Positions 24,615 to 53,127 are shown, counted from the first letter of the whole stretch. The stretch is DNA of 63,709 nucleotides, filler included, from an uncultured Methanosarcinales archaeon (GCA_964472345.1; 3 parts of 3 records of this genome joined end to end with filler, not necessarily neighbours in it), one strand, 5' to 3'. Translations and numbers: made by a program. Notes: generated from the letters alone by a model not told the origin.

Positions 24615-25661
24615 ATGCGGGTACGGGAATTCCAGCACTGGTTGCATGAGCACAAGGTAGCGCTCGCCCTATTCATTGTCGAGGAGCAGCCTGAGCCGAA
24701 TGTGGTGTATTTCGCTGGGCTGCCGGACATCACGCACGCCGCACTTGCCATCCCTGCGCACGGCCAGCAAAAAGTGTTTGTTTCCGCCCTGGATTACGAA
24801 GGCGTGAAGCGTAGGGGGGTGGTGCTGGCGCGGGGGGCGCTGCTTGACGCAGTGAAGAAGCACGCCGCACAGCGTCGGATCGGGGTCGATTTCTCGCGGC
24901 TGCCGCTGCAGCTTGCTCACCGGCTGCAGGAATGGGGCTGTGAGCTGGTTGATGTCCGGGCAGCGGTCGGGAAGCTGCGGGCAGTCAAGACACGCCAGGA
25001 AGCGGCATTGTTGCGCAAGGCTGCGCGGATCGCCGATGAATCATTTTTATCCCTGATGGAGGATTTCCATTTCACGACGGAAGCGGAGGTGCGCGCTGCG
25101 CTCGAGCATGCAATGGCTGTGCGCGGCGCAGCGGCGGCATTCTCCACCATCGTGGCTTCCGGGAAAAACGCAGCCGTTCCCCATCACAGGACCAGCGATC
25201 AGAAGCTGCAGCGGGGCTTTTGCGTGATCGATTTTGGCGCGGTGTACCATGGCTACCGCTCGGACTGCACGCGGACGGTTTTCATCGGCAAGCCGGCGCC
25301 GCAGGAAAAGCAGCTGTATCAGCGCGTGCTGCGGGCGCAGGAGCGGGGGCTGCACGCGGTCCGCGCCGGCGCGCGATGCAGCGATGTTGATCGGTCCGCG
25401 CGGAAGGCGCTTGGCCCATATCAGCGGTATTTCACTCACAGCCTGGGCCATGGGATCGGCGTCGAGGTGCACGAGGCGCCGCATGTTGGAGCGAAAAGCA
25501 CGGAGACGCTGCAGAGAGGGATGGTGGTGACCGTCGAGCCGGGCATTTATCTGCCGGGCAGGCTCGGCATCCGTATCGAGGACACGGTGGCGGTCGGCAG
25601 GCGCGCGGAGCTGCTGACCTCGCTGCCAAAGGAGCTGATGGTTTTTCCGCTGCGCCGGTGA
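24615..25661 (+). CDS. pepP: Xaa-Pro aminopeptidase (M24B)
   Basis: PHH, IDFG, SDCTRT, HSLGHGIG..VHE, EPGIY, GIRIED. Confidence 0.93.
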   Translation: MRVREFQHWLHEHKVALALFIVEEQPEPNVVYFAGLPDITHAALAIPAHGQQKVFVSALDYEGVKRRGVVLARGALLDAVKKHAAQRRIGVDFSRLPLQLAHRLQEWGCELVDVRAAVGKLRAVKTRQEAALLRKAARIADESFLSLMEDFHFTTEAEVRAALEHAMAVRGAAAAFSTIVASGKNAAVPHHRTSDQKLQRGFCVIDFGAVYHGYRSDCTRTVFIGKPAPQEKQLYQRVLRAQERGLHAVRAGARCSDVDRSARKALGPYQRYFTHSLGHGIGVEVHEAPHVGAKSTETLQRGMVVTVEPGIYLPGRLGIRIEDTVAVGRRAELLTSLPKELMVFPLRR

Positions 25662-25666
25662 GAAGC
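25629..25666 (+). repeat. 38-bp direct repeat (pepP 3' end), copy 1
   Basis: Identical to 26885-26922. Confidence 0.97.
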
Positions 25667-25763
25667 GGCAATGGCAGACCCATTGATGACATCAGCCAGG
25701 ATTTCGAAGGTGCTCAACAGTACCGAAAGATTTATTAACTGATAGTTAACAGTTATTAACCAA

Positions 25764-26363
25764 ATGGTAAATAGAGATTTAACCGCTAAAAAGGTAATGC
25801 TCCATATACTTAGAGATTTTTCTGGTACACATACCATAACATCGTTAGCGAAAGAGTTAGATCTAAGCCGTGTTGGTATCTGGAAAATTCTTAAAAAGTT
25901 AGAGGATACTAACTATATTCTCCTAAAGGCGGTTGGAACGGGTAAAACAAGCGCTTCTCTAACAACGTTGAACTGGGAGAATCCGCTTGTTGAAAAATTG
26001 TTATCATTCTATCTAACTGAAGAAGCTCTAAAGCAGAAGCGGTGGCAGGCTAATTTTGTGGATTTAGAGAGGATAACTGATTTTGTAATTCTCTATGGCA
26101 GTATCCTGCATTCCCCCCAGGAGGCAAATGATATTGATATTTTAGGAATCGCTTCTAAGAAGAACCTGATCAAAATACAGGATGTTCTTGATACGGTCCA
26201 GAAAACACAATCAAAAAAAATTCATTCCATCAATTTTACCGCAGATGAATTTAAGGCGGAAATCAAAAAGCAAAATAAAGCTTTTAGAGATGCAGTTAAA
26301 AAAGGGGTTATCCTATTTGGGCAGGAGAAATTTGTTAAATTTATGAGAGGAATCGTAAAATGA
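25764..26363 (+). CDS. wHTH-nucleotidyltransferase (MNT antitoxin-like)
   Basis: N-terminal HTH (ITSLAKELDLSRVGIWKILKKLE); ILYGS..ANDIDIL; AT-rich. Confidence 0.85.
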   Translation: MVNRDLTAKKVMLHILRDFSGTHTITSLAKELDLSRVGIWKILKKLEDTNYILLKAVGTGKTSASLTTLNWENPLVEKLLSFYLTEEALKQKRWQANFVDLERITDFVILYGSILHSPQEANDIDILGIASKKNLIKIQDVLDTVQKTQSKKIHSINFTADEFKAEIKKQNKAFRDAVKKGVILFGQEKFVKFMRGIVK

Positions 26364-26917
26364 CAATCAAACCAAAAATCTTTGAGTGCTTTTCCAGCGC
26401 AAAGAAAGACGAAGAAAAAGGGAAGAAACACAAAGGCCTGCTTTTTGTCGGTAAAGACGATACAAAGGCCGAGGAATACATCCAGAAAGCAAAAGTAAAT
26501 TTACAGTTGTGTGAACTCTACAAAAAGGAACGTATGGATTATAAAATTCCAGAGGAATGGTTCTATTCTCAATACTATTGTGCTCTGGCTATTCTTGCAA
26601 AGTTTGGTGTTGAGAGCAGAAGCCAAAAATGTACTGCTCTGTTTTTGCGCTATGTCAAAGATAGAAGCTTGATTGAGTACGATGACGAATTTATCAATAG
26701 GATCATGGTGTACAGAGAAAAAGGGGAGGAAACCGATGTTGATGAGCGAGAGAAAGCACGCTATGGTTCTTCTGTTCAGAGTGTGGAGATCATGCAGAAG
26801 TACGGTGGGATGATGGACGTTTGCAGGCGATGTATCTCTGCTTGCGAAGAGATTGTGTTCTCGGAGAAGGAGCTTGAAGTACCGAAGGAGCTGATGGTTT
26901 TTCCGCTGCGCCGGTGA
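26360..26917 (+). CDS. HEPN domain protein
   Basis: KAK.NL, FYSQYY, REKARYG; ends in PKELMVFPLRR shared with PepP. Confidence 0.75.
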   Translation: MTIKPKIFECFSSAKKDEEKGKKHKGLLFVGKDDTKAEEYIQKAKVNLQLCELYKKERMDYKIPEEWFYSQYYCALAILAKFGVESRSQKCTALFLRYVKDRSLIEYDDEFINRIMVYREKGEETDVDEREKARYGSSVQSVEIMQKYGGMMDVCRRCISACEEIVFSEKELEVPKELMVFPLRR

Positions 26918-26922
26918 GAAGC
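26885..26922 (+). repeat. 38-bp direct repeat, copy 2
   Basis: Identical to 25629-25666. Confidence 0.97.
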
Positions 26923-27048
26923 AGGCCCCTCGTGACCAACACTCCCCGGTCATCTGCCCCTTTACATTCATAATATGTCAAAAACCGCCGGTCAGTAGAC
27001 CAGCGGCATGCCGTTTGCGGACGGCATGCGGAGTTTTTGAGCACACTG

Positions 27049-27097
27049 GTTTTCCACCGGTGAAAACACCGGTGGAAAACGCAGTGTTTATAAACAC
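27049..27097. promoter_or_regulatory. Palindromic operator-like site and TATA box of pan
   Basis: GTTTTCCACCGGTG-AAAA-CACCGGTGGAAAAC followed by GTGTTTATAAACAC. Confidence 0.55.
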
Positions 27098-27117
27098 CCC
27101 TTCTTTTTTGCATCGGC

Positions 27118-28260
27118 ATGAAAACCCAGGAGCAGCTCGACAAGGTCATCTACTCCTACAGCACGGAAACGACGCAGCTCGAGGAGGAGAACCGCGTGCT
27201 GCGCGAGACGGTGTCGCGGCTGGACGAGGAGCTGCAGCGCATCAAGGCCCCCGCGCTGATGGTGTGCGAGGTGCAGGCGCTGACCGGAAAGCAGCAGGCC
27301 ATCATCCGCATCCCGAACGGGAACCGTTTCCTGTGCCAGGTCGCGAGCGATTGCGGGGAATTGCACGCCGGCGATCAGGTGCTCGTGGAGCAGAAGAACC
27401 TCAACATCGTGAAGAAGATCCAGCTCTCCAAGAAGTTCAACGTCGAGAAGTTTGTGATCATCGAGAAGCCGACGGAGACATGGCAGGATGTCGGCGGCTT
27501 GCAGCACGTGGTGCAGGAAGTGAAGGAAGTGATTGAGCTGCCGCTGCTGAAGCCTGCGCTCTTCGAGAAGATCGGCATCAAGCCGCCCAAGGGCATTCTG
27601 CTCTATGGTGAGCCGGGCACCGGCAAGACGCTCGTGGCGAAGGCGGTCGCGAGCAGCACCAAGGCGACGTTCATCCATGTTTCCGGCAGTGAGCTCGTGC
27701 AGAAGTTCATCGGCGAGGGCGCGAAGCTCGTGAAGGAGATCTTCGATATGGCGCGGCAGAAGGCGCCTGCCATTGTGTTCATCGACGAGCTTGACGCACT
27801 GGCGGCGAAGCGCATTGAGATCGGCACGTCGGGGGAGCGGGAAGTGAACCGCACCTTCATGCAGCTGCTCGCCGAAATCGACGGCTTTAAGCCGCTGGAC
27901 AACGTCAAGGTCATCGGCGCGACCAACCGGAAGGACATCCTCGATTCCGCGGTGCTGCGCCCGGGCCGGCTTGACCGGCTGATCCATGTCGATGCGCCGG
28001 ACGCAGAGGGGCGGACGGAGATCCTGAAAATCCACCTGCGCGGGATGCGTGTGGCGAAGCAGCTTGATCTTGATGACCTCACCGAGCGCATGGACGGCTT
28101 CAGCGGCGCGGAGATACGGGCTGCGGTGACCGAGGCAGGCTACTTCGCCATCCGCGCCAACCGCTCTGCCGCCATCAAGCAGGACTTCTTCAGCGCGATC
28201 GAGAAGGTGCGCCGCAGCGAGGAAGAGGAAGGGGAAGATTATATCGGGATGTTTGGGTAG
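27118..28260 (+). CDS. pan: Proteasome-activating nucleotidase
   Basis: Coiled coil plus OB domain plus AAA (GEPGTGKT, KFIGEG, GEREVNRT), C-terminal MFG. Confidence 0.95.
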   Translation: MKTQEQLDKVIYSYSTETTQLEEENRVLRETVSRLDEELQRIKAPALMVCEVQALTGKQQAIIRIPNGNRFLCQVASDCGELHAGDQVLVEQKNLNIVKKIQLSKKFNVEKFVIIEKPTETWQDVGGLQHVVQEVKEVIELPLLKPALFEKIGIKPPKGILLYGEPGTGKTLVAKAVASSTKATFIHVSGSELVQKFIGEGAKLVKEIFDMARQKAPAIVFIDELDALAAKRIEIGTSGEREVNRTFMQLLAEIDGFKPLDNVKVIGATNRKDILDSAVLRPGRLDRLIHVDAPDAEGRTEILKIHLRGMRVAKQLDLDDLTERMDGFSGAEIRAAVTEAGYFAIRANRSAAIKQDFFSAIEKVRRSEEEEGEDYIGMFG

Positions 28261-28512
28261 CCCGTTTCTTTCCGCTTCTCCGCAGCTTGCGAGGCCTTGC
28301 CAGGCGCTTTTTTTCTTCAGCCTCTGGGGTTTTCTTTTACTCCAGTGGTTTGCCAGAAGGCAGGTATCCCCCGGCTGAACCGCCTGCCTCGTTTCTATTG
28401 CGTTAAACGGGTTGTTAAGTAAATTTTTGCGCTACTTTCTCAACGATAAAAGCGAGCCTCAACCTCTTTACGGGGTCGCCTTCGTTTAGTGCGCGGCTGC
28501 GCAAGAACCGTA

Positions 28513-28546
28513 CGGGCTGAGCGAAGCGAATCCCGCAGTAGTTCAC
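28513..28546. repeat. REP-like repeat, copy 2
   Basis: 31/34 identical to 1241-1274. Confidence 0.7.
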
Positions 28547-28640
28547 TTGACAGAATTGAAGTTTATGTTAGACGATAATCACCAAAATAGCCGATTATAA
28601 TCGATAATTTTATAAAGAAGCACAGATTATAATCGTTAAA

Positions 28641-29065
28641 ATGGAACCACAACTCCAAATTGCGCTTGAAAAACAAAACCATTGGTGGTTTAAGAAACCA
28701 TACGACACAGGTATTTCTCGACTTAATTATTATTCCCAGCTTCAGAAATATTTGAACACGCCGGAAATCCTTCTTTTACTTGGTGCCAGAAGAACAGGGA
28801 AATCCACTCTCCTCTATCAGTTAATATCTACATTAAAAGTAAGTCCTGAAGCCATATTATTTATTAATTTAGATGAGCCTTTGTTTCAAAGCAAAGCAGA
28901 TGATCCAGCATTTCTCAGTAATTTAATAGAAGAATATCTTTTACAGCATAAAGACATACAAAAATATTATATTTTTATAGACGAAGTTCAGAATTATAAA
29001 TATTGGGTGCAAACTATAAAGACCCTTCACGATGTTAATAAACAACTTAAGTTTATTTTAACCGG
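28641..29065 (+). CDS. AAA_14/DUF4143-type ATPase, truncated by gap
   Basis: GARRTGKST, FIDEVQ, ILTG; palindromes GATTATAATC flank its TATA box. Confidence 0.85.
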
Positions 29066-29164
29066 NNNNNNNNNNNNNNNNNNNNNNNNNNNNNNNNNNN
29101 NNNNNNNNNTTAATTAATTAANNNNNNNNNNNNNNNNNNNNNNNNNNNNNNNNNNNNNNNNNNN
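29066..29164. other. Artificial contig join
   Basis: N run containing TTAATTAATTAA (stops in all frames). Confidence 0.95.
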
Positions 29165-29244
29165 NTATCTTTGATGAGTGTAGCAAAACGATTAATTAAA
29201 TTAGCTTCGCCTTCATTGGTAATAAAAGAAAGATTATTATTCAC
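29165..29244 (-). CDS. 5' fragment of a probable PLD-SNF2 helicase (restriction-modification associated)
   Basis: MNNNLSFITNEGEANLINRFATLIKD resembles the N-terminus of that family; only 26 aa visible. Confidence 0.4.
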
Positions 29245-29390
29245 TTTTCCCGCCCCCTCTTCCTTAACTCCCCTTCTATAAATTTCTCAAACTGACGAGA
29301 AACAATCCATCCTTCTTCTTTACATAATGCTCTGTATCTACCATACAGCTTAGAAGTAACTTTTAGGGTTATATTCTTGCTTTCATCCAT
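29241..29390 (-). CDS. Small ribbon-helix-helix-like protein (49 aa)
   Basis: MDESKNITLKVTSKLYGRYRALCKEEGWIVSRQFEKFIE; GTGA overlap with the next gene. Confidence 0.65.
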   Translation of the reverse strand: MDESKNITLKVTSKLYGRYRALCKEEGWIVSRQFEKFIEGELRKRGREK

Positions 29391-29516
29391 TGAAATTCCC
29401 CCCTTCTTGATAAATAACCCTAAATAGTTATAAATATTGCTATTCTACCGCTTTCTCGTCCCTCACCACCTGAATTCACGGAATCCTCTCCAAGACCAAC
29501 CCTCTTTTTGTGAAGG

Positions 29517-30410
29517 TCAGCCCAGCGCAACCATCCCCGCCCCCACCACCCCTGCGTGCTCCCCGAGCTTCCCTTTGACGATGGTGATGCGCCTGCCCAC
29601 GGCGAGCCGCTTCGCGAGCCGGTTGAGCTGCGCGACGGGAACGGAGCTGCTCATGCCTCCGCCGAGGACAATCACATCAGGATCGAGGAGGTTCTGCAGG
29701 TTCGCGAGGCCGAGCGCGAGCTTCTCCATCGTCTGTCGCTTGATGCGCTGCGCGATGCGCTCCCGGGAATGGAAGATCTGTGCAGGATCGGGATTGAGCA
29801 TTCTCCCGCCAGCGCAACGGTAGTGCCGCGTGACGTTCGGGCCGGCGCACCAGCTTTCAAGATCCCCCTTGTTGCCGCAGGCGCAGCGGATGCCTGCCGG
29901 ATCTATGATCATGTGCCCGACCTCCATGGCAAAGCTGCCGCTCCCGTTGCCGAAGCCGCTGCCGTGGTACAGCTTTCCGTCGAGCACGAGCCCTCCGCCG
30001 ATGCCGGTGCCGAGCGTCACGCCGGCCATAGTTGTTGTGCCTTTTCCTGCGCCGAAGAGAAACTCGCCGAGCGCAAAGCAGTTCGCATCATTTTCGATGA
30101 CGAGCGGGCGATGCAGTGCGCGCTGGAGCAGCTTTTTGAGATGAACACCCTGCAGCCGCTGAATGTTGGGCATGAAGCGGACAATCCCGCCGGTAACGAC
30201 ACCGGGGACGCCGATGCCCACCCCGACAGGCACCAGCCCGGCCGTTTCCTGCTTGACTGCCTGAATGACGCTGATGATTCTCGCAACGATCTCCGGGGCA
30301 TGCTGCGCTGCTGTCGGGACGCTGGCGCGCACCAGAACCCGGCCCGAACTGCTCACTGCTCCGGCTCTGATGTTCGTCCCGCCAATGTCAACGCCGATGG
30401 CGCATTTCAT
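29517..30410 (-). CDS. ROK family sugar kinase
   Basis: GVDIGGT, ENDANC.ALGE, GTGIGGG, EVGH, CACG. Confidence 0.93.
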   Translation of the reverse strand: MKCAIGVDIGGTNIRAGAVSSSGRVLVRASVPTAAQHAPEIVARIISVIQAVKQETAGLVPVGVGIGVPGVVTGGIVRFMPNIQRLQGVHLKKLLQRALHRPLVIENDANCFALGEFLFGAGKGTTTMAGVTLGTGIGGGLVLDGKLYHGSGFGNGSGSFAMEVGHMIIDPAGIRCACGNKGDLESWCAGPNVTRHYRCAGGRMLNPDPAQIFHSRERIAQRIKRQTMEKLALGLANLQNLLDPDVIVLGGGMSSSVPVAQLNRLAKRLAVGRRITIVKGKLGEHAGVVGAGMVALG

Positions 30411-30465: not shown

Positions 30466-31585
30466 ATGTATCACATCAAGCAGCAGCCGGAAGACTTTGT
30501 CGTCACCGAGCTGACGTCCGTCACACCCCAGGCCGCTGGCGGGTACTGCTACTTCTGGCTCGGGAAGAGGGATCGTACGACGCTCGATGCGCTCCGCGCC
30601 GTTGCGGCTGCGCTCCGCATCCCTGCAAAATCGCTCGGCTACGCGGGCAACAAAGACCGGCGCGCGGTGACGAGGCAGCTGTGCTCCGCGTTTCATGTGA
30701 GCAGGGAGCGGCTTGAGCGCGTCACGCCCGACGGCATCAGGCTGGAGTTTTACGGCTATGGTGATGCGCCGGTTTCGCTCGGGGATCTTGCCGGCAACTC
30801 GTTCGTGGTCACGGTGCGGAATCTGGATGAGGCGATGGTGCGAAGTTTCGGCGATGTCGGGGCAGGGAAGCGTGCCGGCCCTGCGGAGACGCGGATGCCG
30901 GCTGGCGCTGTACAGGCCCGGGCCGGAGCGCTGCAGGTCATCAACTACTTCGACGAGCAGCGGTTTTCGGATTCGAACATCCGCGTGGGGAAGCTGCTGG
31001 TGCTGAAGCAGTTCAAGGAGGCTGTTGCGCTGCTGATGCAGCACGGGCAGGAAGGCGCGCTGCTGGAGAAGCATCTCCACGCCCATCCGCATGAGTATGT
31101 CGGGGCGCTGCGGCTGCTGCCGAGGAAGATCCTGCTGCTGCTCGTGCACAGCTACCAGAGCTGGCTGTTCAACGAGACCGCTGCGGCACTTGTCCGGCGC
31201 AGTGCACAAGCGACCATCGAAGTCCCCTACCGGTTCGGGACGTTCGTGTTCCCGCTCGAGCCGGTGCGGAGCGTCACGGTCCCCGTGCCCGGCTTCGGGA
31301 CGGAATTCGACGGCTCCGCTGCCGCAGGGATCGTGCAGGCGCTGCTGGTGAAGGAAGGGATCACGCTGCGCGACTTCATCATCCGGCAGCTTCCGGAAGC
31401 CGCTGCGGAAGGGAGCAGCCGTGCGCTTGCGGTTGATGTCGGGGATCTGCGTGCTGTGGCGGATGATGACGAGCTGAATGCCGGCAGGAAGAAGGCAACG
31501 CTCTCATTCACGCTGNNNNNNNNNNCTGCCGAAGGGGAGCTATGCGACGGTGGCGGTGAAAAGCTTGCTTAATGCTCGGCCTTGA
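30466..31585 (+). CDS. truD: tRNA pseudouridine(13) synthase TruD
   Basis: PEDFVVTE, YAGNKDRRAVTRQ, NYFDEQRF, SYQS.LFN; LPKGSYAT resumes after the 10-N gap. Confidence 0.93.
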
Positions 31586-32322: not shown

Positions 32323-32559
32323 ATGGTACAGGCGCTCGTTGAAATCGATGAAACGACCAACCGTGCCCTGAATGTGATACGGGCGAAACACGGGCTGAAA
32401 GACAAAGGCGAAGCCATCCAGTATGTCGTTTACGAGCACATTGAAATGGCAAGCGAGCCTGAGCTGAAGCCTGAATTTATCAAAAAGATCGATAGAATCA
32501 GCAGGCAAAGGAGCATCAAGGTCGATGACTTTGCGAAGAGGTATGGTGTAACGCAGTGA
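32323..32559 (+). CDS. DUF2683-like antitoxin
   Basis: MVQALVEIDE.TNRALNVIRAKHGLKDK, EPELKPEF. Confidence 0.8.
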   Translation: MVQALVEIDETTNRALNVIRAKHGLKDKGEAIQYVVYEHIEMASEPELKPEFIKKIDRISRQRSIKVDDFAKRYGVTQ

Positions 32560-32573
32560 AACCAGGAGCCTGA

Positions 32574-32852
32574 ATGTACGACCTCGAAATAAAAGAGGAA
32601 GCAGATAAGATATTCAGGAAACTGGCAAAAAAGAATCAAAAACAGTTATCCATCCTTGATAAAAAAATCCGCGAAATCAGGGAGCGACCGTTCGGCTACA
32701 AGTGGCTCAGAAAGCCGCTTCAGGGCTTTAACCGGGTCCACATCGACAGCAGTTTTGTCCTTATCTTCAGGATTGACCACGCGCGGAGAACGGTGACCAT
32801 CTATTATTATGACCATCATGACTCGGTGTATAAATGGGTTCCGAAAGAATAA
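32574..32852 (+). CDS. RelE/YafQ-family toxin
   Basis: K.LRKPLQG..RVHIDSSFVLIF, YYDHHD.VY. Confidence 0.85.
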   Translation: MYDLEIKEEADKIFRKLAKKNQKQLSILDKKIREIRERPFGYKWLRKPLQGFNRVHIDSSFVLIFRIDHARRTVTIYYYDHHDSVYKWVPKE

Positions 32853-33605: not shown

Positions 33606-33708
33606 AGCCTCCGGAGGGACTTTCACGCTCATCCCCGAGGATGGTGGGTGTTGAACCCTCGGCCTGCGCATTACAAGTGCGCCGCTCTGGCCACTGAGCT
33701 ACGGAGGC
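33606..33708 (-). tRNA. tRNA-Thr(TGT) with a 30-nt intron in the T loop
   Basis: Acceptor GCCTCCG/CGGAGGC, anticodon arm GCGCA-CTTGTAA-TGCGC, T stem GAGGG/CCCTC; removing 30 nt gives 73 nt; CCA not encoded. Confidence 0.92.
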
Positions 33709-43487: not shown

Positions 43488-44116
43488 ACAAAGCGATACT
43501 GCTGCTTTCCGGCGGCATCGACTCCCCGGTTGCCGCGCATCTGATGCAGAAGCAGGGGCTTGGGCTGGCCGCGCTGCACTTCTACAACAGGCATCTCGGG
43601 GACATTGACACCGTTGCAAAATGCAGGGCTCTGTGCGAAAAGCTCGGCATCGCCAGGCTCTATCTCATTCCATTTGATGAGCAGCAGGCGGAGATCGTCC
43701 GGAAGTGCACGCACAGGTATTACTATATTCTCCAGCGGCGGCTGATGTGGCGGATTGCGGAGAAGCTTGCGGAGCGGGAAGGTGCAGCATTTTTAGTGAC
43801 GGGGGATAACCTCGCGCAGGTTGCAAGCCAGACGCTGAGCAACATGACCACCATCCAGCGCGCGGTGAAGATCCCCATCCTGCGGCCGCTGCTGTGCAAT
43901 GACAAGGTGGAAACGATCAAGCTCGCAAAGGAGATTGGGACGTATGACCTCTCCACGGGGCCTGAGGTGTGCTGCCTGCTGGGGCCGAAGCATCCGGCGA
44001 CGGGGAGCGATCCTGCGGTGATTGAAGCGGAGGAGCGGAAGGTCGATGTTGCGCAGCTTGTGAACGTCTCCCTTTCTTCTGCGGAGATCTTATCACTCCC
44101 ATTGTCACATTCTTGA
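43484..44116 (+). CDS. thiI: ThiI-like tRNA sulfurtransferase, PP-loop domain only
   Basis: LLSGGIDSPVA, TGDNLAQVASQTL.N, ILRPL, IGTY. Confidence 0.88.
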   Translation: MNKAILLLSGGIDSPVAAHLMQKQGLGLAALHFYNRHLGDIDTVAKCRALCEKLGIARLYLIPFDEQQAEIVRKCTHRYYYILQRRLMWRIAEKLAEREGAAFLVTGDNLAQVASQTLSNMTTIQRAVKIPILRPLLCNDKVETIKLAKEIGTYDLSTGPEVCCLLGPKHPATGSDPAVIEAEERKVDVAQLVNVSLSSAEILSLPLSHS

Positions 44117-44201
44117 GCTTAGTTGAGATCATTGCATGACCATCCTCATGGAGATTATAAAAAGCCATCGGCACCGTCGGCGGCAGCATCGTGCGCTCCA
44201 C

Positions 44202-44534
44202 CTAGTCCGTGTTCAAATGCTCATTGATGGAACTGATGATGCGTCCGTGAAATGCCCTTGTGACCGTGCACAGCTTTCTCTTGATGATCATTTTATGGAT
44301 AGTGAATAATCGGTGGGGCTTCACCCAGCTCTGGAAAGGCAGCTCCCCATGCTCAAAACAGCCTTTGTCCATGAGTACCCCATCACTCGCCGGATTGCTC
44401 GTAATCAAGCAACAAATCCTGTCCTCGCTCCTGTTGATATTCTTGTTTGAGATAATCAGCGCTGGCCGGTGTTTCGCGCCCGTCAAATCAGAGTAGGGAA
44501 ATGGAAGCAGAACGACATCCCGTTGGTTATACAC
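44202..44534 (-). CDS. PemK/MazF toxin
   Basis: DVVLLPFPYSD...K.RPALIIS, ITS. Confidence 0.92.
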   Translation of the reverse strand: MYNQRDVVLLPFPYSDLTGAKHRPALIISNKNINRSEDRICCLITSNPASDGVLMDKGCFEHGELPFQSWVKPHRLFTIHKMIIKRKLCTVTRAFHGRIISSINEHLNTD

Positions 44535-44581
44535 GAAAAAACCACCTCTTGGTTTTTTGTGTCTCAGAAATCTTTGATTTC

Positions 44582-44812
44582 TTAGACATTGTTCCATCGC
44601 TCGTCCGCTTCATTATTCCACTCTTTTTTCAGAACATCCTCTGAGGCAAGCATGGTCAGGATACTCTCTCGTTGTGGGTGTTTCTCGAGCTGGTCGAGTT
44701 CTTCCAAACGTTTCTTTATCATTTTGCGGACGTACTCGCTCCACTTCATCTCGGAGTGCTTCCGCATGTGCTTATACACCGTGTCCTCAATCGAGAGGGT
44801 GATATTTGTCAT
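44582..44812 (-). CDS. RHH antitoxin
   Basis: MTNITLSI...Y..MRKHSE.KWSE; ASEDVLKKEW..EADERW. Confidence 0.85.
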   Translation of the reverse strand: MTNITLSIEDTVYKHMRKHSEMKWSEYVRKMIKKRLEELDQLEKHPQRESILTMLASEDVLKKEWNNEADERWNNV

Positions 44813-44902
44813 AAGAAAAGATAAGTGAGCTCACTTATTTAAATGTTTCGGGAGCTGAAGCGCCCAACAACCTTAATAAACAATGTGGTGCATTTCTCCT
44901 TC

Positions 44903-46303: not shown

Positions 46304-46317
46304 AAAGAAAGAAGAAA

Positions 46318-46686: not shown

Positions 46687-49116
46687 TTATCCTTTAATCC
46701 CTATCTCAATCGGCAGGCTGTCGCAGGTCATCGTGACATCATCACCGAAGCAGAGCGCCTTCGCCTGCGTCACGGCCTTGAGGTCTGCTTCCATCTTAGT
46801 GACAATCTGCTGGAAATTCTCAAGCGTGCTGCGGAGGACGATTTCCGCAAGCTCCTGCTTGAGCGAGAGGCCGCGCTGCGACTTGTATTTCCTGACTGCG
46901 GCGATGATAGTGCTGGCGATGGCACCTGCGCGCTCCGCCTGCTCATCAAGCAGAGTCTTGTCCGATTCAGGCCACGATGAACCGTGGATGCTTTTCTGTT
47001 TCTCCTTTTGCGCAAAGTGCTGCTGGTAGAGCTCCTCAGTGATATGGGGCATGATGGGGGCCATGAGCTTCAGGATGACCAGAAGCGCATGCTCAAGCGT
47101 GTATTGGGCGCTGCGCTTCCCTTCCGGGCTGCGGGCAGCGTTATAGAGCCGGTCCTTGACCATCTCAAGATAGTCATCGCAGAATGTGTGCCAGAAGAAG
47201 GTGTCCGCCTCGAGCCTGAGCTTGCTGTAGTCATATGCCTCGAAGCTCTCCGTGGCGAGCATGGTGAGCCTGCTGAGCTTGCTGAGGAGCCATCGGTCGA
47301 ACGGCTCGAGCTTCTCCGGCTTTGCTCCATCATAGCCCTCAAGGTGCTGGAAGCAGAAGCGGGCAGCGTTCCAGAGCTTGTTGATCAGCTTCCTGCCGGT
47401 GACAAGCTCCTTCTCCTGGAATGCGCTGTCTTCGCCGAGTCTGGATCCTGCGGCGGCAAACCGGAGGGCGTCCGCGGCATACTTCTGCATGATCTCCTGG
47501 GGGGCGATCACATTCCCTTTCGACTTTGACATCTTCTTGCCATAGGGGTCGAGCACCCATCCTGAGATTGCAGCACTTTCCCATGGGTTCTTCCCGAAGT
47601 GCAGCCTGTTCTTGGCCATCGTGTAGAAAAGCCAGGTGCTGATGATGTCATGCCCCTGCGGCCGGAGGCTCATGGGGAGCAGCTTCCTGTACACGGGGTG
47701 CGCTTCAAATAGTCTTGCTGCGAGCAGCGGCGTGAGGCTCGAGGTCGCCCAGGTGTCGAGGACGTCCTTTTCCGGATCAAATGCGGTGCCGCGGCACTTT
47801 CCGCAGCTTCCATTGGGCTTGTCGGTGAGCGGGTCAACCGGCAACTGCCCCTCTTCCGCGGGCTTCGCCTCGCCGCATTTCCTGCAGTACCACACCGGGA
47901 ACGGGACACCGAAATGCCGCTGCCGCGAGATGCACCAGTCCCATTTCAGGCCGCGGACCCAGTTGTCGTAGCGCAGCTTCATGAACGGAGGGTACCATGT
48001 GAGCGTTCCTGCAGCCTTCAGGAAATCCTCTTTGAGATCAAGGTAGCGGATGAACCACTGCGTCGAGGTGAGGTACTCGACGACCGTGCCGCAGCGCTCG
48101 TGCGCATTGACGGTGTGCGTGATCTGCTCGCTCTTCTTCACCACGCCGAGCTTCTGCAGGTCTTCCACGATCTTTTTCCTTGCCTGGGCGACGGTGAGGC
48201 CGCGGTAGCTGCCCGCGTTCTCATTCATCGTCCCGTCAGGAGCGATGAGGTGGAGCTTCTTTGCGACGGGATGGCGTGTCTCCCATTCGAGGAACTGCGC
48301 GTCGCCGCTGCTGCAGAAATAGACGACGCCGGTGCCGAATGCGGGGTCGACCATCTCATCGGTGCTGAGCTCGATGCGCGCGCCGGTCAGCGGCATGACG
48401 ACCTTCCTGCCGACGAAGGGGCGGTATCTTGCGTCCGCAGGATGTACGGACATGCCGACGCAGGAGAGGTAGAGCTCCGGCCTCGTGGTGGCGAAGACCA
48501 GCGGCTCGCCGCCCTCCGTCTTCACCTCGATGGAAACGAGCTGCGTCTGCTTCTCCTTGTCCTGCATCTCCGCCTGCGCGATGGCCGTCCTGCACTCCGG
48601 GCACCAGATGGTGGGCGCCTCCTTGCGGTAGGCGCGGCCCTTCTTGTACAAATCAATGAAGCTCCACTGCGAGATGCGCCGGCAGTGCTCATTGATCGTT
48701 GAGTAGAGGACGGAGAAATCGCAGGAGATGCCGAGGCGCTTCCAGTCGCCGATGAATTCCGGGCGGAGCTCGTCGAGCGTTTTCAGGCACAGCGCGATGA
48801 AGGCGCTTCTTTCCATGTCGGCTGCCCTGATACCCTTGAGCTTCTCGACCATGCGCTCGGTCGGCAGGCCGTTGTCATCCGTGCCGAAGGGGAAGAACAG
48901 CTCGAAGCCGCGCATGCGCTTGTAGCGCGCGATGAAGTCCTGCTGGCTGTAGGAGAACGCATGGCCGATGTGCATCCGGCCTGACATGGTCGGCGGAGGC
49001 GTGTCAATCGAGAAAATGGGCTTTTTTGATTCCGGATCGAAGGCATAGACCTTGTTCTCTTCCCAGTAGCGCTGCCAGTGCGCTTCACGCTCCTGCGGGT
49101 CGTAGTGGTCGGCCAT
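46687..49116 (-). CDS. valS: Valyl-tRNA synthetase (archaeal type)
   Basis: DTPPPT.SG..HIGH, ATTRPE, WDWCISRQR, KMSKSKGN. Confidence 0.96.
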   Translation of the reverse strand: MADHYDPQEREAHWQRYWEENKVYAFDPESKKPIFSIDTPPPTMSGRMHIGHAFSYSQQDFIARYKRMRGFELFFPFGTDDNGLPTERMVEKLKGIRAADMERSAFIALCLKTLDELRPEFIGDWKRLGISCDFSVLYSTINEHCRRISQWSFIDLYKKGRAYRKEAPTIWCPECRTAIAQAEMQDKEKQTQLVSIEVKTEGGEPLVFATTRPELYLSCVGMSVHPADARYRPFVGRKVVMPLTGARIELSTDEMVDPAFGTGVVYFCSSGDAQFLEWETRHPVAKKLHLIAPDGTMNENAGSYRGLTVAQARKKIVEDLQKLGVVKKSEQITHTVNAHERCGTVVEYLTSTQWFIRYLDLKEDFLKAAGTLTWYPPFMKLRYDNWVRGLKWDWCISRQRHFGVPFPVWYCRKCGEAKPAEEGQLPVDPLTDKPNGSCGKCRGTAFDPEKDVLDTWATSSLTPLLAARLFEAHPVYRKLLPMSLRPQGHDIISTWLFYTMAKNRLHFGKNPWESAAISGWVLDPYGKKMSKSKGNVIAPQEIMQKYAADALRFAAAGSRLGEDSAFQEKELVTGRKLINKLWNAARFCFQHLEGYDGAKPEKLEPFDRWLLSKLSRLTMLATESFEAYDYSKLRLEADTFFWHTFCDDYLEMVKDRLYNAARSPEGKRSAQYTLEHALLVILKLMAPIMPHITEELYQQHFAQKEKQKSIHGSSWPESDKTLLDEQAERAGAIASTIIAAVRKYKSQRGLSLKQELAEIVLRSTLENFQQIVTKMEADLKAVTQAKALCFGDDVTMTCDSLPIEIGIKG

Positions 49117-49171
49117 TGGTGCAGGAGAAGAAGGGATGTTTAAAAAGGTGTGGGCGGTTTGTCCGTTTGCT

Positions 49172-49795
49172 TCAAGTCCGCCTGTCGCTGCCAGGTGCTT
49201 CTTCACCGCCGCACGTACAGAGCTTCATCGTGACGGTGCACTCAATCGTACTCTCGTATTGTGGTTCCCCCGCGATTGTTTTTCCATCGATACCCGCCCG
49301 CGCTTCCTTCATTGCATACTCTTCTGTCAGTCCTTCGGTGCAGCGTGACGACGTCTCGACGTTCCAATCGAGGACGATGCAGGAATCGTCTTGTTCCTTG
49401 CAGAATGCCGTGCACCGGGTAAGCACCCTGTCCCGTGCCTCCTGGCAAAGCCTTTGCTCGTTTTTCTTGTTCTGATCGCAGGCACCGGGCACGCTGGCCG
49501 TTTCGGTCTCATCGGGCCAGGCCTTGACCAGCAGTCTTTCTGTCGGTGATTCTCCCCGGTCAACTACAAAAGGGAAGCCATAAGATTTGCTGTCGCTTTG
49601 GAATACTTGGTGGTAGGTGGCAGCGCAGCTATCTTTCCCTTTGCCAACGACATCTGGTGCCTTTCCCACGACGCCTCCGCGGAGGTTCTGTACGGCGCTG
49701 GGAGTGATAAGAAGGACCACACCCACGACCACAACAATCGTGATGATTCCAAGAACCGCAATGCAGATTGGCGCCTTTTCGTTGCCTCTTTTCAT
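49172..49795 (-). CDS. Cys-rich membrane-anchored protein
   Basis: N-terminal TM GIITIVVVVGVVLL; many Cys. Confidence 0.75.
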   Translation of the reverse strand: MKRGNEKAPICIAVLGIITIVVVVGVVLLITPSAVQNLRGGVVGKAPDVVGKGKDSCAATYHQVFQSDSKSYGFPFVVDRGESPTERLLVKAWPDETETASVPGACDQNKKNEQRLCQEARDRVLTRCTAFCKEQDDSCIVLDWNVETSSRCTEGLTEEYAMKEARAGIDGKTIAGEPQYESTIECTVTMKLCTCGGEEAPGSDRRT

Positions 49796-49917
49796 CTGAA
49801 CCCTCTGCCACAATTATTATCCCAGTGTAGTTTATAACTCTTTGCCTGAGATGAGCGAACCGCAAGCTCTTATAAACGCGGCACCGCCCTCGGCTCTGAA
49901 AAAGAGTTCCGGCATCG

Positions 49918-50028
49918 GGAAGCGCGCCTTGCTGCTCTACGGGCCTCCGGGCTCCGGGAAGACGTGCAGCGTGTACGCGCTCGTCAGGGAGCTGCAGCAT
50001 GGGGTGCTTGAGATCAACGCGAGCGATT
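49918..50028 (+). pseudogene. Duplicated internal fragment of rfcL (Walker A region)
   Basis: 106/111 identical to 51044-51154. Confidence 0.92.
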
Positions 50029-50073
50029 CCATTCCAGCAGCGCCGGTGGCAGCCTTCGCTGCCCTGACCGACC

Positions 50074-50274
50074 CTAGACCAGCTCCTCTGCGGCCTTCGC
50101 CCCCGAGAGATAGTCATCTACATCCAGGCTGCTTTTGATGCCCAGCTGCGTCAGTGTCTCCATCATCTCCGAGAGCGTCACGCCTGCGAGCTCTGCAGCC
50201 TTGCCGATGGAGATCTTCCCTTCCCGGTAGTTCAGGAACGCGAAGGAGACTTTTCCCGGCCCTATCAGCTCTCG
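50074..50274 (-). pseudogene. 5'-truncated UPF0175-type antitoxin
   Basis: YREGKISIGKAAELAGVTLSEMM; no start codon. Confidence 0.7.
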
Positions 50275-50275
50275 T

Positions 50276-50581
50276 TCACGTCGGGATAATCCTCATCCCC
50301 TCCTTTTCTCCCACCAGCAGGCCATGCTTTCCAGGGGCAATCCTGTACTGCTCTACCATGCGCCGCGGGATCCGCACGGCAATGCTGTTCCCCCAGGTGG
50401 CGAAGGTGATTTCCCGCGCTTTGCGCAGCTGGCGGTACTTGTCCGCGAGGCCCTTCAGCTGCCGGGAGTTCATGAGCTCCTCGCCGCAGGCAGTGCACTT
50501 GTAGGTTTCAAACGCAATGCTGTCCCGCTTGATGAATCCTTCTGTTTGCTCCATTCGTCCCTTGCAGATTGGGCATTGCAT
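50276..50581 (-). CDS. YgiT-like zinc finger plus AbrB antitoxin
   Basis: CPIC..CTACGE; WGNSIAVRIP. Confidence 0.85.
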   Translation of the reverse strand: MQCPICKGRMEQTEGFIKRDSIAFETYKCTACGEELMNSRQLKGLADKYRQLRKAREITFATWGNSIAVRIPRRMVEQYRIAPGKHGLLVGEKEGMRIIPT

Positions 50582-50582
50582 C

Positions 50583-50834
50583 TCAGTTCCCCCGCTCAAT
50601 GGTTTTGATGACGATTGCGTGCCCGACATCTTCGCCGACGCAGATGATCGAGCCCTCCTTCGATCTCCTGATGATTTTGATCCCGTGCTTGCCAAAGCGC
50701 ACGACGCTTCCCGTCCTGAGGACGCTGTACACCTGGTCAGGGTAGGCTATCTCCCGCTCCCGGGCACGGACAACCGCGTGGGTTGACAGGAATACCGGCT
50801 TACCGTCAATGAGGATGTCTTCGCTGTCATCCAC
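50583..50834 (-). CDS. DUF4258-like toxin
   Basis: STHA..RA.ER.I, IVIKT; GTG start inferred from the TATA box. Confidence 0.65.
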   Translation of the reverse strand: MDDSEDILIDGKPVFLSTHAVVRAREREIAYPDQVYSVLRTGSVVRFGKHGIKIIRRSKEGSIICVGEDVGHAIVIKTIERGN

Positions 50835-50934
50835 CGCTGCTGTTTGGATATACATGTATATAAATGTTTCTTCGTTCGCATCCATTCACGTTGACACCGC
50901 AACATTTATTACCGCGCTCCACTCCGGCGGGCTC

Positions 50935-52140
50935 ATGCTCCCCTGGACACTCCAGTACGCGCCGAAGGCAACCGGCGATATCATAGGCCAGGACCATGCG
51001 GTTGCGTTCCTCAAGCGGTTCGTCGCGGACTTCAAAAAGCAGCGGAAGCGCGCCTTGCTGCTCTACGGGCCTCCGGGCTCGGGGAAGACATGCAGCGTGT
51101 ACGCGCTCGCCAGGGAGCTGCAGCATGAGGTGCTTGAGGTCAACGCGAGCGATTTCCGCGATGAGGCGAGGCTGAGCGCGAGCATCGGCCAGGCAAGCGT
51201 GCAGCGCTCCCTGTTTGCTGCGTCAAAAATCCTGCTGGTGGACGAAGTGGAGGGCGTCTTCGGCAGGGAAGACCAGGGCGCGGTGCCGACGCTGGTGAAG
51301 CTGATCAAGAAGACCGCGTTCCCCATCATCCTGACGGCAAACAACCCCTGGGACCGGAAGTTCTCGCCGCTGCGCTCCGCTGCCGAGCTGCTCGAGTTCA
51401 AGCGGCTTGACCACCAGACGGTTCTGGCATTGCTGCGCACGGTGGCCGCCGCGGAGAAGATTGAGTACGAGGAGAAGGCGCTTGCATCGCTGGCGAGAAG
51501 GGCAGGTGGAGACGTGCGCGGCGCGCTGATCGACCTGCAGACGCTGGTGGAAGGCAATAGCTTCACGATGGATCAGCTCAACCTGCTGAGCGAGCGGCAC
51601 CAGATGGACACGATCTTCAACGCGCTGCTGCGCGTCTTCAAGACGATGGACGCGTTCGTCGCGCGCATGGCGTTTGAGGATGTCGAGGAGGACCTGAACA
51701 CGGTGCAGTTGTGGATTGACGAGAACCTGCCGAAGGAGTACACGCGTGCAGCGGACCTGTTCCGGGCGTACGAGAAGCTGTCGCGTGCGGACGTCTTCCG
51801 CGGCAGAATCATGAGCCGGCAGCACTGGCACTTCCTCGCCATGATCAACGTGCTGCTGAGCGTCGGCATCGCATTAAGCAAGGAGCGCAAGTACGAGACG
51901 TTTGTGCGATACACGCAGACGCAGCGCCTGCTGAAGCTCTGGCGCGCGAAGATGAAGTACCAGCAGCGCGCTTCCATCGCGGAGAAGATCGCGGAGAAGA
52001 CGCACTGCAGCACGCGCGTCGCGCTGCAGAGCGCGGTGCCGTACCTGCGTCTTGCTTTCCGGAAGGACGCGAAGAGGATGAAGCAGGTGGCGCAGGAGCT
52101 GGACCTGAACAAGGAGGAGGTGGGGTGGATGGTGGGGTGA
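50935..52140 (+). CDS. rfcL: Replication factor C large subunit
   Basis: PW...[33 protein letters not shown]. Confidence 0.95.
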   Translation: MLPWTLQYAPKATGDIIGQDHAVAFLKRFVADFKKQRKRALLLYGPPGSGKTCSVYALARELQHEVLEVNASDFRDEARLSASIGQASVQRSLFAASKILLVDEVEGVFGREDQGAVPTLVKLIKKTAFPIILTANNPWDRKFSPLRSAAELLEFKRLDHQTVLALLRTVAAAEKIEYEEKALASLARRAGGDVRGALIDLQTLVEGNSFTMDQLNLLSERHQMDTIFNALLRVFKTMDAFVARMAFEDVEEDLNTVQLWIDENLPKEYTRAADLFRAYEKLSRADVFRGRIMSRQHWHFLAMINVLLSVGIALSKERKYETFVRYTQTQRLLKLWRAKMKYQQRASIAEKIAEKTHCSTRVALQSAVPYLRLAFRKDAKRMKQVAQELDLNKEEVGWMVG

Positions 52141-52149
52141 TGCCGAGCG

Positions 52150-52530
52150 CTATTTTCCCCTATAACCAAATTTTTTGTCGTATTCTTTATGATCGATGAC
52201 ATCAAGCACGAAATCAATGATCTCCACCTCGTTCGACTGAATTGTATAGATCAGCCGCCAATAGTTTGACAGTTCGATCCGCCAAAGGTTGGTGACGCCA
52301 TACTTTTGCAGGTAGTAATGCGGAATCTGCCCCTTTTTTACCTGATCCCCGGCAAAAGGGTTCTCTTTCAGCCATCTTTTCACCCGCTCTATCGACCTGA
52401 GGAGAGATTGATGGACGGATGACGTGACGCCCCGTTTCAGCTCATCGCCAACAATCCGGTTTAACCCACCATATTCTTCGGCGGCTTCCGCTGACAGAAC
52501 GACTCGTACCTCTTTTCCTTTGAATGTCAT
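52150..52530 (-). CDS. RelE-like toxin
   Basis: LKENPFAG, NLWRIEL..YWRLIYT, H.EYDK.FGY. Confidence 0.75.
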   Translation of the reverse strand: MTFKGKEVRVVLSAEAAEEYGGLNRIVGDELKRGVTSSVHQSLLRSIERVKRWLKENPFAGDQVKKGQIPHYYLQKYGVTNLWRIELSNYWRLIYTIQSNEVEIIDFVLDVIDHKEYDKKFGYRGK

Positions 52531-52784
52531 AGTTCGGTTCCCCGGCTGATCGCTTCTCTCAGTTTTGGATTGTCGTTCCGTGTCCAGAGGATCCCTTTAT
52601 GGCCATCGAGAATGAGTCCCCGCTGCTCCATGTATTCCAAGATGACATTTAATGTCTGATGCATGATTTGGGCGGGCAACCGCTTCTTGAGTTCTTCACG
52701 GGTCAGCGTCGTTTCTGCCTCCTTGAGCACTTTTTCTACCATCAGCATCGTTTTCAGGTTTGGGTAATGAATAATCTCTTGCAT
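52527..52784 (-). CDS. wHTH antitoxin-like protein
   Basis: HYPNLKT..MVE, LP...MHQTL..ILEY; ATGA overlap with the toxin. Confidence 0.75.
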   Translation of the reverse strand: MQEIIHYPNLKTMLMVEKVLKEAETTLTREELKKRLPAQIMHQTLNVILEYMEQRGLILDGHKGILWTRNDNPKLREAISRGTEL

Positions 52785-52851
52785 TGGTCCACGAATTATA
52801 TTAGCTTATACTAATAATTGTATAAACTTATATATAAAAGTTTCGTTGCGG

Positions 52852-53028
52852 GGCTCTGGTGAGAGCCATGCACTGCCCCCTGATGGCGAGCGAGTAGGTG
52901 TACCTCGTACGACGCGCCAGGAACCGTTTTCCATCAAAAAGAAGAATGGATCTACAGTGGAAAGAACCTCGGGAAAACGGCGAGCGAGCGGCAGTGCCGA
53001 GCGTTAGCGAGAGGCTTTCACCAGAGCC
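52852..53028. mobile_element. MITE, 177 bp
   Basis: 16-bp TIR GGCTCTGGTGA(G/A)AGCC; 8-bp TSD CGTTGCGG at 52844-52851 and 53029-53036. Confidence 0.85.
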
Positions 53029-53088
53029 CGTTGCGGTGGAGTTGGCGGCGGCAAGAATCACGCGAGAAGGGGCTTGTTCATTGAAGCT

Positions 53089-53127
53089 CTGGACCTGAAC
53101 AATGAAGAGGTGGGGTGGATGGTGGGG
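53089..53127 (+). repeat. Duplicate of the rfcL 3' end
   Basis: 37/39 identical to 52099-52137. Confidence 0.92.

Follow-up and report, generated by a model that had tools for sequence, protein, structure and literature searches.

Toxin-antitoxin islets bracketed by copies of neighbouring core genes suggest insertion with long target duplication in a DPANN archaeon

Introduction

It is an old open point by what means toxin-antitoxin (TA) and defence genes are moved without a transposase or integrase close by. The point is raised by a 63,709-nt stretch of DNA, called the window in what follows, from the metagenome-assembled genome (MAG) of a groundwater DPANN archaeon (G000, the genome analysed here; 1.26 Mb in 120 contigs). 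Three islets of small TA-type genes lie in the window beside two core genes, pepP for islet 1 and rfcL for islets 2 and 3, and each islet is bracketed by direct repeats, one copy being part of the core gene and the other displaced. A sequence-only reading of the window had proposed that such cassettes travel with a short arm of host homology and insert by single crossover beside essential genes. By comparing the window with the rest of G000, with relatives and with other loci of one cassette family, we find that the islets are insertions and that the repeated piece was made at each target. We favour, with moderate confidence, a recombinase-independent insertion with long target duplication as the route of these TA cassettes in DPANN.

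Three islets bracketed by copies of neighbouring core genes

The window was scaffolded from three contigs and has N gaps at 29066-29165, 31516-31525 and 53690-53789. A repeat search recovered all three direct repeats where the sequence-only reading had placed them, each in gap-free sequence. The first pair is 41 nt long (40/41 identical, spacing 1256) with an exact core at 25629-25666 (38/38), the second 111 nt (95%, 5 differences, spacing 1126) and the third 39 nt (37/39 identical, spacing 990), and on inspection the repeats have sharp edges. The spacings, which had been singled out as similar, stand as values but carry no special meaning: they equal the size of a two-gene cassette, and genome-wide the spacings of brackets run from 443 to 5610 nt. 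The criteria of Furuta et al. 2010 were applied, namely a repeat of >30 bp, an empty site with one copy, an insert of <20 kb without a mobility gene and a site-unique repeat. The inserts measure 0.95-1.2 kb and the repeats of 41, 111 and 39 nt all exceed 30 bp. Repeats 1 to 3 are site-unique, as whole-genome searches of both regions match elsewhere only parts of dispersed elements resembling miniature inverted-repeat transposable elements (MITE-like) and a RelE paralogue. No recombinase or transposase family was matched among the 79 window open reading frames (ORFs) scanned, in agreement with the sequence-only reading. The GC content of islet 1 is 0.39, against 0.62 and 0.60 in its flanks.

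The toxins of these islets are predicted toxins. TA family matches were obtained for MNT, AbrB/MazE and UPF0175, partly below cut-off. Of the labels given to the genes beforehand, MNT was borne out (PADLOC PDC-M05A, 3.8e-9), RelE/ParE came through ESM-Atlas look-alikes only, AbrB stayed below cut-off, and DUF4258 and HEPN found no match to a hidden Markov model (HMM). The HEPN-like gene owes the name UPF0332 to three relatives so called by their sources. For the small ORF of islet 2, DUF4258 is a weak ESM-Atlas lead (0.85), the cluster concerned having PF14076 in 13% of its members. NCBIfam and PADLOC gave no name to the RelE-like, HEPN-like and DUF4258-like proteins, and a PDB sequence search with the three unnamed cargo proteins returned nothing below E 0.3. 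Besides the pair first described, islet 2 holds a truncated UPF0175 gene. The gene order of the islets includes cargo pairs that overlap by 4 nt.

Three further TA islets in the window, a PIN/MazE pair at 13771-14390, a ParE-like gene at 32323-32852 and MazF at 44202-44828, have no flanking repeat of at least 13 nt.

Relatives with empty sites and with other cargo

The comparison set consisted of G005 (same family), G002, G003 and G004 (another genus), and L057, a contig from another metagenome. The islets are insertions, as had been supposed, because pepP and the proteasome-activating-type (PAN) gene stand 40 nt apart in G005 and the valyl-tRNA synthetase (ValRS) gene and rfcL abut in G003. 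This search for empty sites, advised with the sequence-only reading, showed both places empty at the level of gene order; the identity of 67-72% is too low for base-by-base alignment of the repeat. Other cargo without repeats occupies both places in G002: a different 309-aa ORF between pepP and PAN, and ~2 kb of other small ORFs between ValRS and rfcL. For the site of islet 3 no empty relative was found, and L057 also has a RelE gene there.

L057 is a 2.85-kb contig whose rfcL shares 89% protein and ~88% DNA identity with that of G000. Its gene order is like that of G000, with ValRS, a displaced rfcL piece (58 nt), UPF0175, rfcL and a RelE-like gene, a shared layout which indicates that islets 2 and 3 are older than the split of the two lineages. 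The cargo of islet 2 differs between them: L057 has a full UPF0175 gene and a PIN-like gene, G000 a UPF0175 stump and the AbrB-like pair, with the break-points inside genes; a cassette was replaced within islet 2. In a metagenome scan with rfcL, L057 was the sole close relative, the other 7 of the 8 loci being distant AAA proteins.

Independent contigs for islets 2 and 3 came from the assemblies of four groundwater runs, all from one study, among which the source sample may be included. Both joints of islet 3 are covered by these contigs, and islet 2 is spanned from one repeat to the other. None of the 15 contig joints listed, of 29, lies at an islet boundary, and neither excision nor circles were seen; as these are contigs only, the count has no bearing on either. 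Strain variants of the rfcL pieces that carry each other's letters were not used, since they lie near contig ends and are possibly misplaced.

Bracketed islets across the genome

The genome-wide self-alignment for direct repeats that had been suggested as a check was carried out and gave 24 brackets in 1.26 Mb. Self-comparison of G000 yielded 46 same-contig direct pairs of at least 24 nt, 36 of them spaced 200-6000 nt; 24 of these 36 bracket small islets, and the remaining 12 comprise tandem paralogues, repeats within proteins and unclear cases. With exact 20-mer seeds, same-contig repeats are direct in 50 cases vs inverted in 3, and at a spacing of 0.5-2 kb the counts are 30 vs 0, an imbalance that excludes chance for the repeats. 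Two brackets, at a H+-pyrophosphatase (PPase) gene on contig C29 and a GT2 gene on C50, each hold a 10-N gap and were set aside, which leaves 22/24 without a scaffold gap. The C29 case (5821-7652) is a 171-nt 3'-end 'repeat' with 14 differences, 13 of them synonymous, whose second copy begins 9 nt after the gap; scaffolding has probably joined two strain alleles here, a trap for repeat-based inference from MAGs.

The repeats of the 24 brackets are 24-171 nt long. Fifteen of the islets carry cargo of TA or defence type by Pfam matches or equivalents (MNT, HEPN, HepT, HicA, VapB-like, AbiEii, RelE-like nuclease, AAA_14-DUF4143, STAND and Fic), and in 12/24 the GC content lies at least 0.05 under both flanks. 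In 13 brackets one of the copies is a flanking gene's 3' end, with the repeat edge at most 5 nt from the stop codon in seven of these; in 5-6 brackets the copy begins at or just after a start codon, and in two (rfcL and a DHH gene on C4, each 111 nt) it is an internal piece from the 5' part of the gene. The expected enrichment of TA loci between the repeats holds for one family and fails for another. MNT loci are enriched (5/24 matches within 2.8% of the genome, p 5e-4; 4/24 without C29, p 0.003) and PIN toxins are not (0/26); therefore bracketing is one route for some cassette types and not the general state of TA loci. In the 181-kb G004, 26 direct and 0 inverted repeat segments were found, with ~3 islet-like brackets of unnamed cargo, a weak support for generality.

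The islet 1 cassette in other genomes and its joint with pepP

At E <= 1e-10 there are 1012 relatives of the HEPN-like partner of islet 1 in genomes of Woesearchaeota and Nanoarchaeia, and many of them share 80-86% identity with it. When species-level genomes were scanned for the cassette, it was found at 80 loci, 70 of which have enough flank to be assessed. A tight direct-repeat bracket surrounds the cassette at 22 of the 70; with a virtual cassette placed 2-3 kb away as a control, the count falls to 0-1 of 45-62. The repeats at these loci are 21-192 nt long and all different, and they overlap the end of a flanking ORF in 13/23 bracketed loci (ten 3' ends and three 5' ends). The insert starts at varying places upstream of the MNT gene, the first repeat ending 623-792 nt before the HEPN start, and it ends 0-196 nt past the HEPN stop without conserved termini. 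A different local repeat and a different cassette end-point at every site indicate that the duplication is made at each target and that the arm is not carried by the cassette from genome to genome. Brackets recur in genomes built with different assemblers.

A few HEPN-like relatives of 65-84% identity (P0021; L080, L084, L098) come from records labelled as Buchananbacteria (candidate phyla radiation), Gammaproteobacteria, Bacteroidetes and Methanosarcinales MAGs, odd labels that reflect either a cassette transferred widely or mistakes in binning or labelling.

One joint of islet 1 can be placed from an alignment of 23 members of the HEPN-like family, which are 177-189 aa long apart from two chimeric copies of 185 aa. 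A PKELL-type tail with 0-2 further residues ends 21/23 of them, the family end being VPKELL(E) before the stop codon. The two chimeric exceptions are the G000 protein, which ends in VPKEL+MVFPLRR before its stop, and a 94%-identical protein with VPKEL+IVVPLRR. The tail of the G000 protein is exactly that of pepP, which ends LPKELMVFPLRR (LPKEL+tail). VPKEL followed by the pepP tail places the right-hand joint of islet 1 within a patch of ~12 nt that the HEPN-like gene and pepP have in common. As a separate observation, the ORF of an AAA_14-DUF4143 ATPase on C43 (7957-9354) runs through a displaced enolase gene end to a later stop, a second chimeric tail.

Recombination between the copies after insertion

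Over the 62 nt shared by the four rfcL pieces, genic and displaced, of G000 and L057, three sites group by lineage and 0 by orthology. Set in orthologous surroundings, this grouping by lineage shows gene conversion between the rfcL copies. Arrays were found elsewhere. On contig C71 of G002 (L044, 229-4059; L047), three different wHTH-MNT/HEPN-like pairs (wHTH, winged helix-turn-helix) are set apart by a 25-40-nt sequence that is present four times; a fourth, inverted pair is also present, and the first copy stands just after a gene of >568 aa whose product looks coiled-coil-like by eye. The similarity reaches further to the left between copies 1 and 4, and further to the right between copies 2 and 3. 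Similar arrays occur at the loci L111 and L148; in all three arrays, one repeat in 3-4 copies separates different cassettes. Most simply, arrays come from unequal homologous recombination or from re-integration at an existing copy. Recombination between two copies after insertion is thus supported, and arm-based swapping inside a species therefore stays possible.

A model for insertion with target duplication

We propose, again with moderate confidence, that TA cassettes enter DPANN genomes by insertion with long target duplication, independently of a recombinase. A small self-contained cassette (a promoter and two genes, mostly of TA type) would enter the few nucleotides between packed core genes, and the insertion would duplicate 20-200 nt of the target, one copy forming the working end of the core gene and the other a dead fragment beyond the insert. 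The joints would be illegitimate and aided by short patches of similarity, through replication template switching or microhomology-mediated joining by host enzymes: a 3' end would depart from the chromosome just past the gene end, copy or join cassette DNA, and re-engage at a short similarity patch upstream of the point of departure, so that the intervening stretch is duplicated. In a compact genome with 40-nt spacers, only insertions that leave both neighbours whole would survive; as only such events are seen, the repeat edges would hug stop and start codons. Later, host homologous recombination between the copies would lead to gene conversion, stacking and replacement of cassettes, and an addictive cargo may resist pop-out loss between the repeats. 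The model starts from the insertion of the islets, the local origin and variable ends of the brackets, the one microhomology joint, the lack of a recombinase signature described below and the gene conversion; to these it would add its enzymology and the role of addiction.

Several points weigh against this model. Microhomology is demonstrated at one joint only. Of the 70 loci of cassette relatives 48 are not bracketed, and PIN loci are 0/26. The single-copy target is seen at the level of gene order, no near-identical pair of strains with and without an islet having been found, and the contig check of joints covers islets 2 and 3 only. Arrays that re-use one repeat in 3-4 copies are easier to obtain by a site-directed process and need added unequal recombination. 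The 111-nt pieces of rfcL and the DHH gene misfit a simple target duplication, as the first 58-112 nt of the gene and its promoter are unduplicated, and a second event must therefore be assumed; L057 shows secondary deletions of the kind needed for such internal pieces. Finally, in a MAG of 120 contigs an integrase on an unassembled mobile element is possible.

A further-reaching reading, which we regard as possible and rather doubtful, would make the copied gene end a portable, locus-specific recombination site at which cassettes are excised, swapped and stacked by ordinary homologous recombination, a recombinase-free functional analogue of the integron made of host sequence. DPANN, and perhaps other ultra-small microbes, would then take up TA and defence cassettes by a template switch that copies the target, and the arrays of C71, L111 and L148 together with the gene conversion at rfcL would be footprints of that system.

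Alternative routes

Single crossover by a circular cassette of ~1 kb that carries a host gene-end arm, and that integrates and excises through it, was the route proposed in the sequence-only reading. Campbell insertion of such a circle yields the repeat-cassette-repeat product, copies do recombine, arrays with one repeat come naturally from such circles, and a similar life cycle of restriction-modification (RM) units is proposed by Kobayashi's group in the part of their paper drawn on here (PMC2853133). As the primary route it is nevertheless unlikely and was not upheld. The 22 sites have 22 local repeats with varied end-points, so each arm would first have to be made locally, and relatives of the islet 1 HEPN keep their own tail and not that of pepP. 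The internal pieces of rfcL and the DHH gene lack the duplicated 5' part expected from a crossover. With the PPase and GT2 brackets left out, the copies differ by 16 synonymous and 22 non-synonymous changes (42%; p 0.011 vs random, p 0.41 vs the ~39% expected under constraint on the genic copy and decay of the other), which fits in-place decay of one copy and not diverged donor arms. An excess of synonymous differences over all brackets (32:27, vs 24% expected) had been considered as a sign of donor-allele arms, and was dropped once the scaffold gaps came to light.

A site-specific recombinase acting in trans (XerA, an integron-type enzyme, or the integrase of an unassembled element or of a host organism) would make the islets akin to cis-mobilizable elements (CIMEs) or to clusters of attC sites lacking integron integrases (CALINs). 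Insertion at a gene 3' end with a regenerated end is the classic signature of an integrase, repeated use of one site gives arrays, and archaeal integrons and CALINs, often with TA cassettes, are described for this phylum in the portion of Ghaly et al. 2022 (PMC9668308) used here. We give this explanation a small chance of being right. The 24 repeats of G000 (24-171 nt) are unrelated and share no k-mer; no common motif or junction signal was found in them, the top 6-mer occurring in 5/24, and no conserved att core is present across these 24 or the 22 loci of relatives. The cassette ends vary by tens of nucleotides and cut genes, the HEPN tail being replaced and UPF0175 truncated. The genome-wide search for recombinases and transposases covered PF00589 and PF07282. 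The sole tyrosine recombinase (PF00589) in G000 is XerA by NF040815 (263.5 bits, > 220) and fails the integron-integrase model (208.6 < 265); no TnpB-type gene (PF07282) was found in G000, other transposase families having been searched in the window and not genome-wide. Nor were attC-like palindromes seen: there are no inverted repeats at the cassette ends, and R''..R' spans number 2 in 42 kb of islets vs a background of 1.5, both within an MNT coding region and scored without the IntegronFinder attC model. A transposon or MITE signature is likewise missing, as no inverted repeats bracket the islets, the duplication is variable in length (21-192 nt) and the insert ends are unconserved. Since XerA is the one tyrosine recombinase of the genome, attC sites are missing and the 24 repeats have no motif in common, neither a cassette-borne nor a site-specific recombinase explains the islets, as the sequence-only reading had assumed.

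Homology-facilitated illegitimate recombination, in which linear donor DNA is anchored in the core gene and its other end is joined upstream of the recipient gene end, would explain why the insert-side repeat edge lies at a stop or start codon with microhomology at the other edge, and why cassette genes are truncated at the far joint. The same logic is proposed for orphan immunity arrays and Rhs tips in the part of Kirchberger et al. 2017 (PMC5361080) consulted. It requires a donor that already has a cassette at that gene end and so cannot be the first step; moreover, no signal of donor-type alleles is left once the scaffold-gap cases are removed, and relatives carry other cargo at the same sites. 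We therefore hold it to be improbable.

An artefact of assembly or scaffolding from mixed strains is very improbable: it accounts for 2/24 brackets (PPase on C29, GT2 on C50), which hold a 10-N gap and of which the PPase has 13/14 synonymous differences like strain alleles, but the three window repeats are gap-free, independent contigs bridge the islet 3 joints and span islet 2, L057 has the displaced rfcL piece in the same context in another metagenome, and brackets recur across assemblers.

Features of the window

The coordinates of the islets and their neighbours are collected in Table 1.

Table 1. Genes and repeats at the pepP and rfcL islets, with positions counted in the window.
Feature	Position	Strand	Evidence or remark
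pepP-like M24 peptidase, core gene	24615..25661	+	PF00557 5.5e-64, PF01321; orthologues beside PAN in G005, G002
Repeat 1, genic copy: last 36 nt of pepP including stop, plus 5 nt	25626..25666	+	
wHTH-MNT (nucleotidyltransferase), islet 1, GC 0.36	25764..26363	+	PF08279 2.9e-6, PF18765 4.3e-4 (weak), PADLOC PDC-M05A 3.8e-9
HEPN-like (UPF0332-named) partner, 185 aa, islet 1	26360..26917	+	1012 relatives; last 7 codons and stop are the displaced pepP tail
Repeat 1, displaced copy	26882..26922	+	
Dispersed short repeat (MITE-like), between islet 1 and PAN, outside bracket	26969..27094	.	Copies on C29, C36, C64, C5, C42
PAN-type AAA ATPase, conserved right neighbour of pepP	27118..28260	+	PF00004 1.9e-41; synteny
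ValRS-like, ancestral left neighbour of rfcL	46687..49206	-	PF00133, PF08264; abuts rfcL in G003
Repeat 2, displaced copy of rfcL codons ~38-75 (Walker A region)	49918..50028	+	58 nt also in L057
UPF0175 antitoxin gene, truncated, C-terminal part only, islet 2	50066..50275	-	Aligns with full gene L057:428-724 (PF03683 4.4e-11)
Zn-finger/AbrB-type antitoxin-like, islet 2	50276..50695	-	PF04014 1.2e-4, below cut-off; weak YgiT/MqsA-finger matches
Small partner ORF, toxin candidate, islet 2	50583..50885	-	No Pfam, NCBIfam or PADLOC match
rfcL-like AAA+ clamp-loader	50932..52140	+	PF00004, PF21960; likely start 50932 (listed ORF start 50809); orthologues G003, G002, L057
Repeat 2, genic copy (internal rfcL piece)	51044..51154	+	
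Repeat 3, genic copy: last 13 sense codons of rfcL, stop codon excluded	52099..52137	+	
RelE/ParE-like toxin gene (predicted), islet 3	52150..52530	-	ESM-Atlas 0.98 to RelE/ParE-named archaeal clusters; no HMM match
wHTH antitoxin-like gene, islet 3	52527..52784	-	Overlaps toxin start by 4 nt; weak PF09106 match only
Dispersed 200-nt repeat (MITE-like), islet 3, upstream of antitoxin promoter	52809..53029	.	8 further partial copies in G000, 73-89% identity
Repeat 3, displaced copy	53089..53127	+	5 nt from stop of convergent gene 53132-53551; bridged by independent contig

The MITE-like repeat at 26969-27094 sits just upstream of the PAN promoter region. Rfam models across the window found tRNA only; the GC-rich 250 nt of islet 3, which are the dispersed repeat of that islet, had no match. 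Small Cys-rich, signal-anchored proteins of no known family are encoded beside the rfcL islets (49172-49813, 53132-53551 and 53889-54929); a small Cys-rich protein lies at the same hot spot in G002 (L055:1332-1913), and L057 retains no more than the last 52 codons of the gene. Around the MazF islet (43802-44851), contigs of all four runs depart from the window at 43836 and return at 44814, with unlike sequence between, and three runs have a short-sided joint at 44330>44821; at this place a different sequence may be present in the population or in a near relative.

Elsewhere in the window, a CDC48-type double AAA ATPase (8343-11156) has a match to the intein-splicing domain PF14890 at residues 293-456, and RtcB on contig C6 has a weaker intein match. 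Two tandem paralogues that end in a PEP-utilizers mobile domain (11160-13774) explain the 147-nt, 73% repeat D1. A tRNA at 33643-33702 on the minus strand (Rfam, 41.5 bits, model positions 7-64) is absent from the ARAGORN result and may be truncated or intron-bearing.

Discussion

Insertion with long target duplication is reportedly the subject of a report by Nobusato et al. in 2000 (Gene 259:99), where it concerned RM gene units. In the part of Furuta, Abe and Kobayashi 2010 (PMC2853133) on which we draw, long, variable and site-unique direct repeats flank RM units that have no mobility gene, an empty site is present in a relative, overlap with the 3' end of a neighbouring gene is frequent, and no archaeal RM case survived the screen. 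The mode is restated by Mruk and Kobayashi in the portion of their article used here (PMC3874152). The islets described here are like these RM units in being small, putatively selfish and addictive units without a mobility gene, flanked by site-unique repeats of tens to hundreds of bp, with overlap of a neighbour's 3' end and an insert of differing GC content. They are unlike them in their cargo, which is of TA type (MNT-HEPN, RelE, AbrB) with ATPases, and in their DPANN host; here there are ~20 per 1.26 Mb, with gene conversion and arrays, and the empty site is seen at the level of gene order and in other genera. The kind of insertion is therefore known, and what is new is the DPANN domain, the TA cargo, the density of ~20 per 1.26 Mb, the cross-genome count, the gene conversion and the arrays. 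In the literature, taken without supplements, no specific description of this mode with TA cassettes or in DPANN was found.

Other systems share some of these properties. At the Rhs and type VI secretion system (T6SS) effector-immunity loci, as presented in the sections of Kirchberger et al. 2017 (PMC5361080) cited above, modules are added at a conserved gene end with older ones displaced downstream, and arrays, the lack of a recombinase and a microhomology joint on one side recur as in the islets; there, the module replaces part of the same gene family, whereas here unrelated housekeeping anchors stay intact, in archaea that are not known to be naturally competent. Integron cassettes and CALINs, including the archaeal ones covered in the portion of Ghaly et al. 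2022 used here (PMC9668308), are likewise ~1 kb long, promoter-poor or self-contained and arranged in TA-rich arrays, also in Nanoarchaeota. Unlike them, the islets have no attC hairpins and no IntI, and their repeated 'site' is a copy of the local gene end that differs from locus to locus. CIMEs and other islands that regenerate a gene 3' end have a 3'-end direct repeat, leave the gene intact and carry no integrase inside, and they depend on one integrase and one att site; the islets differ in that they occupy dozens of unrelated sites, end imprecisely and have small inserts of 0.5-2 kb. In the minimal mobile elements of Neisseria, different strains likewise have different small cassettes between one and the same pair of conserved genes, and host recombination exchanges them by double crossover in the flanks and without duplication; unlike these, the islets carry a flanking duplication.

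The movement of TA cassettes can here be approached through a countable signature, since members of one cassette family are bracketed at 22/70 loci vs about 1% in the controls, and, with one microhomology joint resolved, sequence data alone are enough to test the question. For annotators there is a warning: the short pieces of gene ends and the chimeric ORF tails found in MAGs of this type are scars of insertion, and some, beside scaffold gaps, are artefacts of strain mixing. The long-target-duplication mode described by Kobayashi would be extended from bacterial RM genes to archaeal TA cassettes, and the results suggest that duplicative insertion may let foreign genes land between abutting essential genes in very compact genomes.

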